Below are positions 32,657 through 40,426 of a DNA stretch of 64,000 bases, piece after piece. The notes below the pieces were generated by a model that worked only from the letters and a program-made list of their open reading frames with translations, had not been told where the DNA came from and did not search any database. The DNA comes from Candidatus Poribacteria bacterium (GTDB lineage: Bacteria > Poribacteria > WGA-4E > PCPOR2b): contig OZ244042.1 in the NCBI GenBank assembly GCA_965215015.1, positions 1,632,001 to 1,696,000 on the forward strand, in the 5' to 3' direction. Each line of letters opens with the position of its first letter. Within the stretch, counting starts at the first letter, position 1. The position numbers were made by a program, and so were the translations under genes.

Positions 32657-34030
32657 TTATTTAATATTGTGCATGTAGATATCACCGATATCGCTGCGGG
32701 CATCGCTCCACACAACGCTCAATTTCCCCAGCTCAGATTCCACAACATAGGGCGGCTGCTGCACACCGTCTGCCGTGCATAGCGGAATTCCATTTTCAGT
32801 CCAAAGGGTCTTTCCTTCTAAATTGATTTTCTGTCCGTAGATAGCGTCATTGCTATCATCACCGTAATCTTCCCGAAAATCTAGCCACGCAACAAAAAAA
32901 TTGTTTTCGTCATACCGGGTTAGAAATGGTTTGTCCTGATACCCTCCAGCTGCACACAGGGGGATTCCGTTGAGTGTCCACCGAGGGGTGCCATCAGCAC
33001 CGATTCGTTGAGCATAAAGATCTGAAAAAATGTCCCGCTCATCTCGCCAGACAGCTACCACTCCCCCGCGCCCATCGCTCGTAATTGCAGCATTTTTTTG
33101 AATACCCTCTGCATCGCAGATCGGCACACCACTTAGCTCCCAAACCTTGCTTCCCGATGCGTCTATCCGCTGGGCGTGGAAATCATCGTTGATAAAATTC
33201 TCGTAAATCTGCCAGACGATGATAAGTCCACCTTGCCCATCGGTCACCGTACGCGGCTCGCCCTGCAATCCTTCCATCGGTGAAACAACTATTGGTGCCT
33301 GCCAGCGGTGCTTGCCGTCCATGCCTATTCGGTGCGCCATGATATCCCACTGTTCGTAACCGATGACCTCCCACCAGACGACGTAGAAGCTATCTGCATC
33401 GCCGGGTACCAGCCGGGGAGTGCTCTGAAGTGCTTCGGATGGAAATACCGGTACACCATCAAGTTCCCACATCGGTTGACCGTTCATGTTAATTCGTTGG
33501 ACATAAAGGTCGTGAAGGTCGGGGTCTCGACGCCGGTCTTTCCAAACGATAATCGCTCCGCCTGATCCATCGCTCAGAATTTCTATATCAGATTGGTCTG
33601 CCGGGTGTGTACATACGGGAACACCCCCGTTGGGTATCAGCTTATTTCCTGATAGATCAATCACTTGAGCGTAGACATCCCAATTCTCCGGGGCGCGTTG
33701 ATCTGTCCAAGCGATAATTATGAAATCCTCGTTACGCACCAGCCGTAACCATCGCTGATCCCGTTTTTTTTCGCAAATTGCTATGCCTCCTTCCGTCCAT
33801 AAAGAGATGCCATCAACGTTGAACCGTTGGGCGTAAACGTCCCAATCCTTCTCAGTGCGGAAGTCCTCCCATATGACAACTGTGCCGCCAACGCCATCGC
33901 TGACCCCCCGCGGCGCAAATTGGCCTTGAGGGGCAATCGCAATGGGGATGTTCTCTGAAGCATCGGCTAGCATAGAGCCGAACAGAAGGAGCGTGCCGAA
34001 TAACATCAACCACGAACGTATCTGTTTCAT
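32657..34030 (-). CDS. Secreted repeat (beta-propeller-like) protein
   Basis: Signal peptide; about 7 repeats of DGxGGxIxVWxDxR...DxYAQRI...W..xGxPxC. Confidence 0.85.
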   Translation of the reverse strand: MKQIRSWLMLFGTLLLFGSMLADASENIPIAIAPQGQFAPRGVSDGVGGTVVIWEDFRTEKDWDVYAQRFNVDGISLWTEGGIAICEKKRDQRWLRLVRNEDFIIIAWTDQRAPENWDVYAQVIDLSGNKLIPNGGVPVCTHPADQSDIEILSDGSGGAIIVWKDRRRDPDLHDLYVQRINMNGQPMWELDGVPVFPSEALQSTPRLVPGDADSFYVVWWEVIGYEQWDIMAHRIGMDGKHRWQAPIVVSPMEGLQGEPRTVTDGQGGLIIVWQIYENFINDDFHAQRIDASGSKVWELSGVPICDAEGIQKNAAITSDGRGGVVAVWRDERDIFSDLYAQRIGADGTPRWTLNGIPLCAAGGYQDKPFLTRYDENNFFVAWLDFREDYGDDSNDAIYGQKINLEGKTLWTENGIPLCTADGVQQPPYVVESELGKLSVVWSDARSDIGDIYMHNIK

Positions 34031-36467: not shown

Positions 36468-37685
36468 CTATTCTGTAATTTCCGTTACAACTCCCATCCC
36501 AATCTTCGCTCCCATCTTCTTAATCTCGAACCGCGTGCCGATTTCTAGTGCCATCGGTACATCAAGCGAAATTCGTACGGTTGCGTGTTCGCCCGGATTG
36601 ATAATGGCAACCTCCAACGAAAGGTGAAGATGCCCTGTGACATCGATTGTCCAGAGATGAATCTCCGGTTTATCGTTCCCAACGAGGGGGATATGTGTTC
36701 CGCACTCCTCTTGGGTCATCACGTAAACCACCGCCTCAAATTCGGTGTGTGACTTGATGCTCTTCGGTTGTGAAACAACCTGCCCCGGCGTAATCCACCC
36801 CATCTCTGCATCGACTTGGACTTCATCTCCTGCACTCTTACCCGCTTCGTTGTACTTTTCCCCTGCCGAGGAGGCAGCATCGCTATGCCGCAGACCGACG
36901 CAGCGGGTTTTGATACGATCCCCTTTGCCGACGACATCAACCGGGAGCCCGACAGCAAGACCGCCTTGTACCACCTGACCGTATAATGTTGAGGTGCCTT
37001 TGGGATTGTCAATGACCTTCTCAATTGGCATCAATAATGGCAATTCGAGTGGATTCAGCGGCTGCGGCATGCAACGATTCATTGCGAAGATAAAATCGAC
37101 AATCGGTTTCCAGTGATTTGAATTAAGATTTTGTCCCTTATAGTTAAATGCCTTTTCCCCATCGCCAATGATAATGGGCGACTCCTCAGCCACATAGCTA
37201 CAATCCGTGAGTATTTCACGAATCTCCATCTCGCAAATCTCGATTAATTCCGGATCTTTAACCTTCTCTGCCTTATTCAGAAAGGTGACAACCGTAGGGA
37301 TGCGAACTTGGCTCGCAAGCCGAATCTCGGCTTCGGCTTCTGCTGTCACACCATCAACTGCACTCACTACCAAAATTGCACCGCGAATGCCCGGCGAACC
37401 ACCAATCAGCATCTTGATGTTATCCCCGTGACTTAGTCCATCAATATGTGTGTAATGTCTACCGCTTGTTTCATAATCGACCACTTTATAACTGACGTAA
37501 GTTTGCTGTCCTATTGAATGATGCGTCGGTTGCTGTGCTTCAAAGTCACCCGCATCCATCTGCGTGGAGCCAATCCGTGAAACTACCTTGATTATCCCAG
37601 CAGTCAGCGTCGTTTTACCGTGTTCCACCCCGCCGAGTGTGCAGATTGTCAACCCGTGATGCCGATATTGCCTTTTTTCATCCAT
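36468..37685 (-). CDS. Divergent EF-Tu-like translational GTPase paralog
   Basis: GGVEHGKTTLT, DYETSGRHYTHID, AILVVSAVDG, FLNKAE, LLMPIEKV, HTEFEAVVYVM, GMGVVTEI; collinear with all three EF-Tu domains. Confidence 0.9.
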   Translation of the reverse strand: MDEKRQYRHHGLTICTLGGVEHGKTTLTAGIIKVVSRIGSTQMDAGDFEAQQPTHHSIGQQTYVSYKVVDYETSGRHYTHIDGLSHGDNIKMLIGGSPGIRGAILVVSAVDGVTAEAEAEIRLASQVRIPTVVTFLNKAEKVKDPELIEICEMEIREILTDCSYVAEESPIIIGDGEKAFNYKGQNLNSNHWKPIVDFIFAMNRCMPQPLNPLELPLLMPIEKVIDNPKGTSTLYGQVVQGGLAVGLPVDVVGKGDRIKTRCVGLRHSDAASSAGEKYNEAGKSAGDEVQVDAEMGWITPGQVVSQPKSIKSHTEFEAVVYVMTQEECGTHIPLVGNDKPEIHLWTIDVTGHLHLSLEVAIINPGEHATVRISLDVPMALEIGTRFEIKKMGAKIGMGVVTEITE

Positions 37686-38198
37686 CGCTTTCCTCTCTGA
37701 CGGAAATGTGGTAAGTCATGCGTCAAACGTAAAAAATACCCACACTGTGTCATATCATTCTTGGCTCATTGAGCCTAAACCAGTATGATACTATGCAAGT
37801 ATTCTTCAGTCCCATAGATCTGTGAACCCATTGTCTACCTACTCACTGCTCCAGCATGAAGATTGGATCGAAAGATAGCATTTCATATTTTACCATAGAG
37901 GAGAGGGTAGAGTCCATTAAAAGAAAATGGAAAGCGGCAAATCTTTAGGGATTTATCCAGATTTGTAGGGGCCAGCATGATAGTAGAGATATAGGGAGCC
38001 AGTTTTGTTCGACAACGGCCAAAGCCTCGGCACCCGGTGAGATTTTACCGGCGGCGAACCTAATAGTGTCTACCGTCCCCCCGGTTATTACAGGATTAAT
38101 CCAAATTCGACGAAAAAAATTTGAAAACTCCTAGTAGGAATTTGTGTCTATGATTATAGTATGGCTGCATTAGGAGAATTGCATCCGTTTTTTAGTTT

Positions 38199-38220
38199 GT
38201 AGTAGCGCAATTCATTGCGC
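38199..38220. repeat. GTAG-type REP (related copies at 53999-54020 and 54059-54080 on the minus strand)
   Basis: GTAGTAGCGCAATTCATTGCGC; compare GTAGTTGCCCGATTCATCGGGC and GTAGTAGCGCAATTCAACCCGC. Confidence 0.75.
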
Positions 38221-38433
38221 GTCACAAATCACCCTACTACATACCTGAGGGTTGCTTATAATAATTGTCTGAATCGCAGATTAAACAGATGATGCAGACT
38301 GCACGCGTACAGATAGGGGCCTCAGGCGGTAGACGGAACAAGATGCCCCACCGACGGGGTTGGGAGTTTAATGGCAGTTGGGCGTTATCCAAGCCATATG
38401 CGGTAACGGTTCTGGGGTTTACGGCACGGCGGA

Positions 38434-38730
38434 GTGTGCCTACTACTGCCACGGAAATACAATCTCGCACATTTCATTTTAGGGGGCGTTGTCGTTTTGG
38501 GCCTAATGCTGCTGATGATAGACTTTGAAGCACAAGCACAGATTGCCTTCGTGTCTGATAGGGATGGGAACAAGGAAATCTACGTGATGAACGCCGATGG
38601 CGCACGACAGGTACGAAGACGCACTAAAAATGGCCGTGAGAACATTAATCCTGCACGGTTTGCCCTTGCTTTTGCAGTTGAAGTTGCTCCCGCAGGTAAG
38701 ACGCTTACGATGTGGGGCTGGCTCAAATAG
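38434..38730 (+). pseudogene. Collapsed TolB/PD40-repeat secreted protein gene (internal deletion)
   Basis: Signal peptide, one [21 protein letters not shown] repeat, then directly the C-terminal [14 protein letters not shown] tail. Confidence 0.7.
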
Positions 38731-38806
38731 GTCAGATGATAACTACCATTATCACTGAAACTGCCCGGTGTTAAGAAAAACTTGACCGGTACGCCTCTAT
38801 TACCTA

Positions 38807-39511: not shown

Positions 39512-40426
39512 TCACGGATTATACTCCCAATTCGCTTTTCGGGTTCCGTATTTTGTTCCATTGATGACAGTCTGATGGCAGTTGAGGCAAGCGTTATAGG
39601 ATTTGACCCCATGACTCTCGTGGGCAAACTCAATCTCAGGGGTGTTGTGAACATGACAGGTGAGACAGGTATAAGCCTCGTACACAGCATCTGCATGGAC
39701 ATCTAACCGATCTCCCGCTTCCTCAACCATATATTCACCCTTGTTTTTTTTATCAGTTACCAGCCAGTGCTCCCCCTTCTCTCTCGTTGAAATCGTTGTT
39801 TGTCTAGAAAGGGAAGTCCCATGCAAATCAAATTCCCACTGCAAGTCCTCTGAAACAACCCCCCCGCTATCTAAATCGCTCTGAAAGCGCGGATCGATAC
39901 TAAACAGCAGTGCCTCCGACGTATGGCATTTCACACATGGGACATCGTGAACTTCTGTCAAAGGGAAAAATTCATCGTGATCTAATTTTTCTCTGCCGTG
40001 CAAGACAACGGTAAGCAGCAAGATTGGTGCGAGGGCAAGGTGGCAGCGGAGAAGAATGCGTCGGGCGTGGTGTGCAGTAAAACTGAGGGCAATGCCGGTC
40101 CCAAGGTTGAGTAGGGTTAGCGTAAACGCCAACCACGAGTGCCACGCAAGCGGTTGAGCCGCTGAGTGGATAAGAACAAGAGACAATCCTAACGATGCGA
40201 GCCTTTGATGGTATTTGAGCCAGACCTGTCGGCTTCCCCATCGGATTAACCGTGTCCGCAGAATATAGCCACTCGCAATGAAAATGATGAGGACACCGAT
40301 GATACTGAGCGTATGTCGCGCTTCGCCGAAGCTCGATCTGAGGATAAAGAAAAGGGATATAAGAATTGCCCCAACAACCCCTTGAGCAATTTGAACGAAT
40401 GGATTCATAAGCGGAAAAATTAACAA
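39512..40426 (-). CDS. Membrane protein with His-paired TM helices and three CxxCH heme c motifs
   Basis: About 5 TM helices with H-x13-H pairs; CVKCH, CLTCH, CLNCH; start codon uncertain (40426 or 40408). Confidence 0.75.
   Translation of the reverse strand: MLIFPLMNPFVQIAQGVVGAILISLFFILRSSFGEARHTLSIIGVLIIFIASGYILRTRLIRWGSRQVWLKYHQRLASLGLSLVLIHSAAQPLAWHSWLAFTLTLLNLGTGIALSFTAHHARRILLRCHLALAPILLLTVVLHGREKLDHDEFFPLTEVHDVPCVKCHTSEALLFSIDPRFQSDLDSGGVVSEDLQWEFDLHGTSLSRQTTISTREKGEHWLVTDKKNKGEYMVEEAGDRLDVHADAVYEAYTCLTCHVHNTPEIEFAHESHGVKSYNACLNCHQTVINGTKYGTRKANWEYNP

Follow-up and report, generated by a model that had tools for sequence, protein, structure and literature searches.

What can a full-length relative of elongation factor EF-Tu do once the motifs with which EF-Tu senses GTP and holds aminoacyl-tRNA have been remodelled? 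The question is raised by an open reading frame (ORF) in a 64,000-nucleotide stretch of a Candidatus Poribacteria genome (assembly GCA_965215015.1, contig OZ244042.1, positions 1,632,001 to 1,696,000 of the forward strand; the whole stretch is called the window here), which sits within one 5.94-Mb contig. A preliminary description of the window, made from the letters alone, had proposed that the ORF encodes a neofunctionalised EF-Tu-like factor with altered nucleotide or tRNA specificity, or a pseudo-GTPase. The reading we favour, at a probability of roughly 0.6, is an EF-Tu-derived pseudo-GTPase that does not switch and does not carry aminoacyl-tRNA, likely still holds a nucleotide, and has a binding or regulatory role. 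Because the GTP-sensing and aminoacyl-tRNA-holding parts have been lost from a copy that is otherwise intact and conserved, a new job for this paralog is most likely.

The gene lies on the minus strand (36468..37685; all features of the gene given below are on this strand) and runs from an ATG through 405 codons to a stop, with zero internal stops. A Shine-Dalgarno-like purine-rich sequence read directly from the DNA, GAGAGGAAAG (37688..37697), is placed 3 nucleotides 5' of the ATG, and the N-terminus MDEKRQYRH is common to 11 same-genus orthologs. The protein has the three domains of the EF1/EF-Tu family at the level of the fold, so that the intact, three-domain ORF of the preliminary description stands. 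Domain 1 (aa 1-205; 37071..37685) has the G-domain fold, as seen from Pfam GTP_EFTU (3.2e-23, aa 13-183) and the secondary structure of an AlphaFold2 (AF2) model. Domain 2 (aa 213-310; 36756..37049), delimited from Pfam and the AF2 strands, is a remodelled beta-barrel that Pfam GTP_EFTU_D2 (PF03144) fails to recognise in the paralog or in any ortholog among those listed. Domain 3 (aa 311-405; 36471..36755) matches GTP_EFTU_D3 at 2e-18 over aa 309-403. The top solved relative is the EF-Tu 6gfu (E 5.8e-75, aa 11-405), the best 60 of the 71 distinct PDB sequences matched are EF-Tu throughout, and an ESM Atlas search with the paralog returned EF-Tu clusters only.

The paralog does not stand in for the cell's EF-Tu. 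A canonical tuf, the presence of which the preliminary description had wished to see confirmed, lies at C1:5843579-5844775, 1.7 kb downstream of a 718-aa translational GTPase (trGTPase) frame on the same strand, and scores 729.2 bits on the EF-Tu equivalog model TIGR00485 (cut-off 522.4). On that model the paralog, 34% identical to this tuf, reaches about 260 bits (259.7-260.1); all four NCBIfam EF-Tu models match it end to end with 260-272 bits, where the cut-offs lie at 449-522. The paralog is outside the tuf/EF-G neighbourhood, with no fusA beside it as in a str-type cluster, and its neighbours are instead genes for an M20 peptidase and for a protein of the uridine-kinase family. Nor is it SelB: it stops with domain 3 and, as first noted, has no SelB domain IV, it scores 52 bits on the selB model TIGR00475 against a cut-off of 242.25, and the genome carries a separate 645-aa SelB-like frame.

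To read the G-domain motifs, the paralog was aligned with the annotated E. coli tufB and the genome's own tuf. Residue states, in E. coli numbering, were counted over 129 distinct core members of the family, from a starting set of 131 rows, with proteins of less than 380 aa dropped and with three basal and three P-loop-less sequences set apart. Each of the five motif replacements listed in the preliminary description reappears in the alignment. Only G1 is intact: the P-loop GHVDHGKT has become GGVEHGKT (aa 18-25; 37611..37634), which retains the GxxxxGKT pattern, with G18 and G23 present in 129/129 core members and K24 and T25 in 128/129. The switch-I equivalent (aa 41-65; 37491..37565) has lost RGITI, which reads QQTYV, and the Thr of the T61 column is found in 1/129. 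In G3/switch II, DCPGH has become DGLSH (aa 82-86; 37428..37442); D80 is kept in 128/129 and H84 in 109/129, and G83 is found in 2/129 (S in 62, T in 57). The Thermus aquaticus counterpart of this glycine, Gly84, which corresponds to E. coli position 83 by alignment, contacts the gamma-phosphate through its amide (PMC4329189). G4, NKCD in canonical EF-Tu, reads NKAE (aa 137-140; 37266..37277), with N135 in 129/129, K136 in 52/129 and D138 in 14/129 (E 60, N 28, G 25), and the G5 equivalent, GSAL in EF-Tu, reads GDGE (aa 174-177; 37155..37166), with S173 in 0/129 and Asp in its place in 125/129. PMPQTREH of canonical EF-Tu is also absent.

Similarity to canonical EF-Tu is distributed unevenly. 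It peaks in strand beta-4 (0.73), followed by helix D (0.49) and by the region of the P-loop and helix A (0.46); the lowest values belong to the segment equivalent to EF-Tu 257-280 (0.03) and to switch I (0.11, the minimum of domain 1). Helix D, which in EF-Tu is the helix that binds EF-Ts and bL12, is thus still EF-Tu-like (aa 145-161, ELIEICEMEIREILT; 37203..37253; a helix over the same residues in the AF2 model). Helix F, on the other hand, is the best conserved region inside the family (0.85) and is unlike EF-Tu (0.22). The family also bears invariant motifs of its own, YETSG[RK]HY, HWKPIVDLIFAMNRC, VDIVGKGDRIKT, NDKPEIHLW and FEIKKMG. A separate observation concerns cysteines, of which each paralog has 3-9 (at least 5 in 17/20) versus 2-4 in canonical EF-Tus; at least 90% of the family conserve both Cys15, directly before the P-loop, and Cys151, which lies in helix D.

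The sites with which EF-Tu holds aminoacyl-tRNA are lost as well. In T. aquaticus EF-Tu the aminoacyl pocket consists of His67, Glu226, Asp227, Phe229, Thr239 and Asn285, Glu271 and its neighbours hold A76, and Lys90 and Arg300 bind the tRNA 5' phosphate (PMC4329189); the E. coli equivalents by alignment are 66, 215, 216, 218, 228 and 273 for the pocket, 259 for A76, and 89 and 288 for the 5' phosphate. Among the core members H66, D216, F218 and T228 are each found in 0/129 and E215 in 1/129. At the 5'-phosphate site K89 alone is retained (129/129), R288 being found in 0/129. The segment carrying E259 and N273 (EF-Tu 257-280) shows gaps in 14/24 columns of the family consensus. At this site the paralog has a genus-specific low-complexity insert (aa 266-290; 36816..36890), recognised from its low model confidence, its absence from the 386-aa orthologs and its dN/dS (the ratio of non-synonymous to synonymous substitution rates). 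Of the pocket changes proposed in the preliminary description, His66 to Val and Asp216 to Lys were recovered in the alignment. The third, Glu at the N273 equivalent, was not: the alignment gives Ala, and no N273 equivalence can be claimed since the insert is unalignable and is deleted in most orthologs. In domain 3, H319 is kept in 127/129 members and both R377 and E378 are replaced by Lys in 129/129; KKMGAKIG (aa 389-396; 36498..36521), with its Lys-Lys invariant in the family, replaces REGGRTVG, as had been read. The E259-N273 site is also an indel hot spot, where the window's genus has a disordered insert of 25 aa and the 386-aa forms have no residues at all; in some f2/f1 genomes (G020, G074, G100, G125, G144, G159) the match is split near residue 267.

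These data bear on whether the protein might be an elongation factor specialised for one unusual aminoacyl-tRNA, in the manner of SelB, nematode mitochondrial EF-Tu2 or archaeal MM1309. Its full length and three domains, the retained His319 and the basic residue at position 377 would suit such a factor. However, the pocket is unconserved, the strand pair that bears E259-N273 is deleted in most members, the 64-kb window holds no tRNA or transfer-messenger RNA gene and no Rfam family at gathering score, the genome already has its SelB-like gene, and a subclade that lacks the P-loop (described below) would be incapable of forming a GTP ternary complex. We regard this explanation as very improbable. 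The altered tRNA specificity of the preliminary description is likewise not supported, as the aminoacyl/A76 pocket and the 5'-phosphate site have been destroyed rather than retuned.

Is the paralog a local oddity or a family? Among 41 close genomes, matches were found in all 19 other members of the genus, at 87-91% identity, which drops to 48-77% in other genera of the window's order. A scan of 176 genomes of the phylum gave a best match of E <= 2.3e-79 in 153 of the 159 genomes of the order; this was taken as paralog level, being stronger than the best canonical-tuf match in the close-genome search (8.4e-74). The six remaining genomes comprise two with a much more divergent form (G033 and G039, E about 1e-47 to 1e-49), one with two matches (G068), and three with one match each at canonical level only (G021, G069 and G116, which are 94, 85 and 86% complete). 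Outside the order, 2 of 17 genomes have a paralog-level match (G047, 1e-90; G048, 5e-85), to a less-derived form that is 86% and 59% identical, respectively, to the cluster representative P0121; 10 have canonical-level matches only and 5 have none at E <= 1e-40. Less-derived forms thus occur in two sister families (f6 and f7); by family, the paralog is present in f1-f4, f6 and f7 and lacking in f5 and f8-f11. When 1.84 billion cluster representatives were scanned exhaustively with HMMER, the paralog's own cluster (P0012) and P0121 (41%, 4.6e-88) came first, and then ordinary EF-Tu at no more than 36% identity. The named relatives are all Candidatus Poribacteria and are labelled 'GTP-binding protein', 'hypothetical protein' or 'elongation factor Tu'.

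Phylogenetic analysis placed this family within EF-Tu. A 70-row tree (IQ-TREE 'quick', LG+C20+F+G4 with posterior mean site frequencies) was built from 20 paralogs, four Poribacteria tufs, E. coli tufB and 44 of the 148 representatives P0122-P0269, limited to 388-412 aa, with the N-terminal 340 aa of the genome's SelB as outgroup. All 20 paralogs fall in a single clade (SH-like approximate likelihood ratio test 99) nested within bacterial EF-Tu. It has long stems, one of 0.48 and a further one of 0.95 leading to the main order, and its inner branching tracks the families of the genomes. With a 28-row LG+G4 set, a clade of the paralogs with the Poribacteria tufs was not rejected by the approximately unbiased test (p-AU 0.349), so the data allow an origin by tuf duplication within the phylum.

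A duplicate with so many degenerate motifs could simply be decaying towards a pseudogene. To measure selection, dN/dS was calculated by the Nei-Gojobori method (NG86, own script) over the 66 pairs of 12 same-genus sequences, leaving out L035 and L036, which come from the same genomes as L010 and L016. The median was 0.079 (range 0.058-0.113; median dS 0.59). By region the values were 0.073 for domain 1, 0.050 for the core of domain 2, 0.083 for domain 3 and 0.232 for the aa 266-290 insert; deeper pairs gave 0.08-0.13, with dS near or above 1. No stop was found within the match of any ortholog examined in the 41 close genomes and the 176-genome scan. Decay is refuted by these results, since dN/dS is low (0.06-0.13) in all three domains and orthologs occur throughout the order with intact frames; moreover, the gene has been retained over four families and beyond, and the family bears new invariant motifs. 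With G2-G5 altered at a dN/dS of 0.08, the protein would by its sequence be of the kind called a pseudoGTPase, in which G motifs are lost from a conserved, selected protein. As judged from sequence, the family is Poribacteria-restricted, vertically inherited, derived from EF-Tu, under purifying selection and unable to serve as an EF-Tu. The neofunctionalised EF-Tu-like factor of the preliminary description is therefore supported: it had named the lack of orthologs, a dN/dS near 1 or a place in a described subfamily as grounds for rejection, and we found order-wide orthologs, a dN/dS of about 0.08 and no described subfamily that claims the paralog.

Members of the family differ in which motifs they retain, and these differences suggest an order of events. 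The basal forms (P0121, G047, G048) retain GHxxHGKT, NKID and GSA, but their switch II already reads DCV[ND]H, and neither the switch-I Thr nor His66 is present. At the other end, in L032-L034 (genomes G036, G033, G039), three residues are deleted where GK[ST] would stand, and 0/5 G motifs are left; the P-loop-less pair L033/L034 still gives a dN/dS of 0.134. Because basal, main-order and P-loop-less forms differ in this way, loss appears to have been stepwise: the switch sensors and the tRNA pocket would have gone before base recognition, and the P-loop only after that, in a single subclade.

The predicted structure agrees with a loss of switching. The AF2 model of the paralog, made with a 103-row alignment that includes 38 canonical-type rows, has a mean predicted local distance difference test score (pLDDT) of 91.1 and a predicted template modelling score (pTM) of 0.87, shows three domains, and falls below a pLDDT of 50 only at aa 1-4 and 269-283; domain 2 has 7 strands versus 10 in the canonical model. 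In a Foldseek search of the PDB, EF-Tu structures rank first (probability 1.00). GDP-bound, open forms, among them 6mij, 1tui, 1efc and 8rdw, and several EF-Tus reconstructed as ancestors (6gfu, 5w75/5w76) match with template modelling (TM) scores of 0.84-0.88, as against 0.48-0.51 for the closed forms 4lby and 1ha3. As a control we modelled the genome's canonical EF-Tu (17 rows, pLDDT 84.7, pTM 0.69), which matched the closed forms 1exm, 1eft, 1ttt and 1ob2 at 0.86-0.89 and GDP forms at about 0.54. The paralog is thus predicted to adopt an open, EF-Tu·GDP-like arrangement, in contrast to the closed arrangement of the canonical protein, and this contrast between models is in keeping with the missing gamma-phosphate sensors. 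In a complex prediction, the paralog with the genome's EF-Ts gave a median interface score (ipSAE) of 0.31, compared with a mark of 0.32 and control values of 0.00, which speaks neither for nor against this pairing.

A less likely reading is that the protein is still an active nucleoside triphosphatase (NTPase) whose base specificity has relaxed or changed (ATP, or ATP and GTP), and that it acts at the factor site of the ribosome with His84 as the catalytic residue. G1, Asp80, Lys89 and Asn135 vary hardly or not at all, His84 persists in most members, helix D is conserved, and the Asp that replaces Ser173 in 125/129 gives the look of a base pocket that has been remodelled, not abandoned. The window's G4, NKAE, is of the NxxE type credited with the dual ATP and GTP use of YchF (PMC3583859), although YchF/OLA1 belongs to a different, Obg-like GTPase family and position 138 of the paralog is not fixed as Glu. 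Against activity, the gamma-phosphate sensors are missing (T61 1/129, G83 2/129), position 138 is not fixed, His84 is replaced in 20/129, the subclade without all five G motifs is still under purifying selection, and the predicted open arrangement is the inactive state in EF-Tu. We consider an active enzyme distinctly less probable than a protein that does not switch. The altered nucleotide specificity offered by the preliminary description may yet apply, as G1, D80 and N135 stay invariant while D138 and G5 are remodelled, but it is not the option we favour.

The genomic setting was compared across 17 paralog loci. In the window's own genus the flanks are M20 peptidase, isochorismatase-like and uridine-kinase-family genes; in f2 they are HisA/F-type and cytidylyltransferase genes, in f3 AccA and PhyH, and in g11/g12 enolase-superfamily and HAD genes. 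No neighbour is conserved between families across these loci, consistent with the earlier remark that the gene stands alone. The genome has one EF-Ts gene and one bL12 gene, with no duplicated partner. Another conceivable role is that of a decoy or sponge which shields the real factor from molecules that act on EF-Tu or make use of it, such as EF-Ts, phage proteins and toxins, contact-dependent or otherwise. In its favour, the overall EF-Tu shape and several surfaces (helix D, the domain 3 core) are kept and catalytic function is not, and sponge symbionts are known to be rich in defence genes. Yet none of the 5027 PADLOC defence models matched the window paralog, P0121 or the L033 form; the neighbourhood is neither defence-like nor mobile, its flanks being ordinary metabolic genes; and vertical, order-wide, single-copy inheritance at low dN/dS is unlike that of arms-race genes. 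The RGITI and Thr382 sites, which are the targets of Lit and Doc in EF-Tu, are themselves changed. A decoy is, in our judgement, improbable.

Taken with these alternatives, the pseudo-GTPase option of the preliminary description fits best, because the whole family has done away with the switch-I Thr and the switch-II Gly, and one subclade with the P-loop too; it requires the amendment that in most lineages a nucleotide is probably still held. What made EF-Tu a GTP-driven carrier has been lost: the gamma-phosphate sensors (the Thr of switch I and the Gly of switch II), the Asp that specifies guanine, SAL, the A76/aminoacyl pocket and the 5'-phosphate site. Nucleotide is probably still held because strict selection acts on the phosphate/Mg site (P-loop, Asp80 and Asn135) in most lineages, including that of the window. 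The nucleotide may serve as a fixed cofactor, or be bound with relaxed base specificity, without a role in switching. The protein would then remain permanently in the predicted open, EF-Tu·GDP-like arrangement, would deliver no tRNA, and might act in binding or regulation through surfaces that were either kept or fixed anew, namely helix D, the basic Lys-Lys patch and His319 on domain 3, and the family-specific helix F. In EF-Tu, helix D and the domain-3 patch have binding roles.

Several points weigh against this picture. The retention of helix D is a similarity and not a demonstrated interaction, and the invariant P-loop, Asp80 and Asn135, with His84 in 109/129, fit a still-active NTPase equally well. 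The counts over 129 members come from related sequences in which one family is dominant and do not represent independent events. AF2 conformations are not thermodynamics or equilibria, and the two alignments compared were of unequal depth (103 versus 17 rows). Since the flanks differ between families, the neighbourhood offers no functional clue, and in a run search no RNA sequencing run was listed as holding the paralog gene.

The idea that the paralog is a dedicated mimic of EF-Tu·GDP for a factor of the Balon/aeRF1 type was considered because EF-Tu(GDP), in its open form, is present on Balon-bound ribosomes (PMC10901736); 8rdw, among the open-form matches of the paralog model, is such a structure. 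Neither PF10116 (Host_attach) nor PF03465 (eRF1_3) had a match in the genome at E <= 0.01, other bacterial aeRF1-like families lying beyond this search; PF10116 was positive in Bacillus subtilis, Thermus, Deinococcus and Caulobacter controls, and PF03465 in five controls.

Some further features of the window were observed near the gene. Upstream of the paralog, 1.1 kb (37686-38806) is without a long ORF; a plus-strand frame of 98 aa within it (38434-38730) has no Pfam match, contains a stretch that by eye resembles a TolB/PD40 repeat, and may be a gene remnant. A 457-aa protein on the minus strand (32657-34030) has a signal-peptide-like N-terminus, a repeat of about 50 aa ending 'D(V/L)YAQR' and no Pfam match. 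Also on the minus strand, a 304-aa protein (39512-40426) with several N-terminal hydrophobic stretches, three CxxCH motifs (CVKCH, CLTCH, CLNCH) and no Pfam match may be a membrane-anchored multihaem cytochrome.

How does the family compare with known relatives of EF-Tu? With canonical EF-Tu (TIGR00485; e.g. 6gfu, 1tui) the paralog shares the three-domain fold, its length, 31-37% identity, the P-loop, Asp80, Lys89, Asn135 and helix D. It differs in reaching half the equivalog cut-off and in being without the switch-I Thr, switch-II Gly, NKxD Asp, SAL, PMPQTREH, the pocket and the Arg288 site. In a 2015 trGTPase survey, actEF-Tu/Streptomyces EF-Tu3 is the sole clearly distinct EF-Tu-like bacterial subfamily, and is described as a working, antibiotic-resistant, condition-specific elongation factor (PMC4342817). 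Like the paralog family, EF-Tu3 is a second EF-Tu, restricted to one lineage, that escaped gene conversion; unlike it, the paralog family has lost the tRNA pocket and switch motifs, and is set apart from actEF-Tu by the latter's description. The text of the survey makes no mention of Poribacteria (PMC4342817). We matched the paralog to no described trGTPase subfamily or curated model, the comparison with actEF-Tu being by description only, and found no earlier account of a Poribacteria EF-Tu paralog in the literature, though the supplementary subfamily tables of the survey might list such sequences. By its sequences, then, the Poribacteria-restricted family is a second distinct EF-Tu-like bacterial subfamily after actEF-Tu.

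The closest analogue in concept is MM1309 (aSelBL, 'aEF-X'), an EF-Tu/SelB-like protein described as having the same conformation in its GTP, GDP and apo states, with switch regions that serve domain contacts instead of sensing the nucleotide, and as binding GTP and GDP and protecting Cys-tRNA (PMC4329189). For the paralog a fixed shape is predicted. MM1309 is archaeal and of the SelB branch, whereas the paralog family lies inside bacterial EF-Tu and is without the aminoacyl pocket.

Degenerate copies of EF-Tu may not be confined to this family. Many of the nearest 50%-identity cluster representatives (P0144-P0267) are themselves degenerate EF-Tu-like proteins of other bacteria, among them one from a Deltaproteobacteria metagenome-assembled genome (P0153); most retain NKxD and SAL and are without the switch-I Thr, switch-II Gly and His66. 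A 'GTP-binding protein' of Rhizobium mongolense (P0181), with GPDGAGKT and DFPEH, is about 52% identical to Sinorhizobium tuf, which suggests that such copies arose independently in other bacteria. Since similar copies occur there, the phenomenon may exceed the Poribacteria family.

A more tentative proposal, well short of our favoured reading in likelihood, is that the family is a bacterial counterpart of Hbs1/Ski7-type evolution. By this analogy the protein, locked in the open, GDP-like shape, would use helix D and the newly basic domain-3 patch to bind the ribosomal stalk, the factor site, or a structured RNA or protein. It would neither carry tRNA nor switch with GTP, and could, for instance, regulate translation or park ribosomes in a way peculiar to Poribacteria. 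Hbs1 and Ski7 are eukaryotic offshoots of the EF1A family with weakened GTPase, paralogs of tRNA-delivery factors in a non-tRNA job, with partly degenerate GTPase motifs; they have N-terminal extensions and bind protein mimics of tRNA (Pelota). The Poribacteria genome differs in having no aeRF1/Balon-type partner by PF10116 or PF03465. Hbs1 and Ski7 are classed as EF1 subfamilies (PMC4342817). If the proposal holds, the family would form a natural series, from intact G1, G4 and G5 (f6, f7), through a nucleotide-holding form that does not switch (the main order), to P-loop-less forms (g11, g12).

EF-Tu is among the most conserved and best-studied of proteins, and a divergent subfamily under strong selection is therefore notable. 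Its ordered decay would be a natural experiment in how a molecular switch becomes a non-switching scaffold, and would point to a new EF-Tu-related activity in an uncultivated phylum of sponge symbionts.

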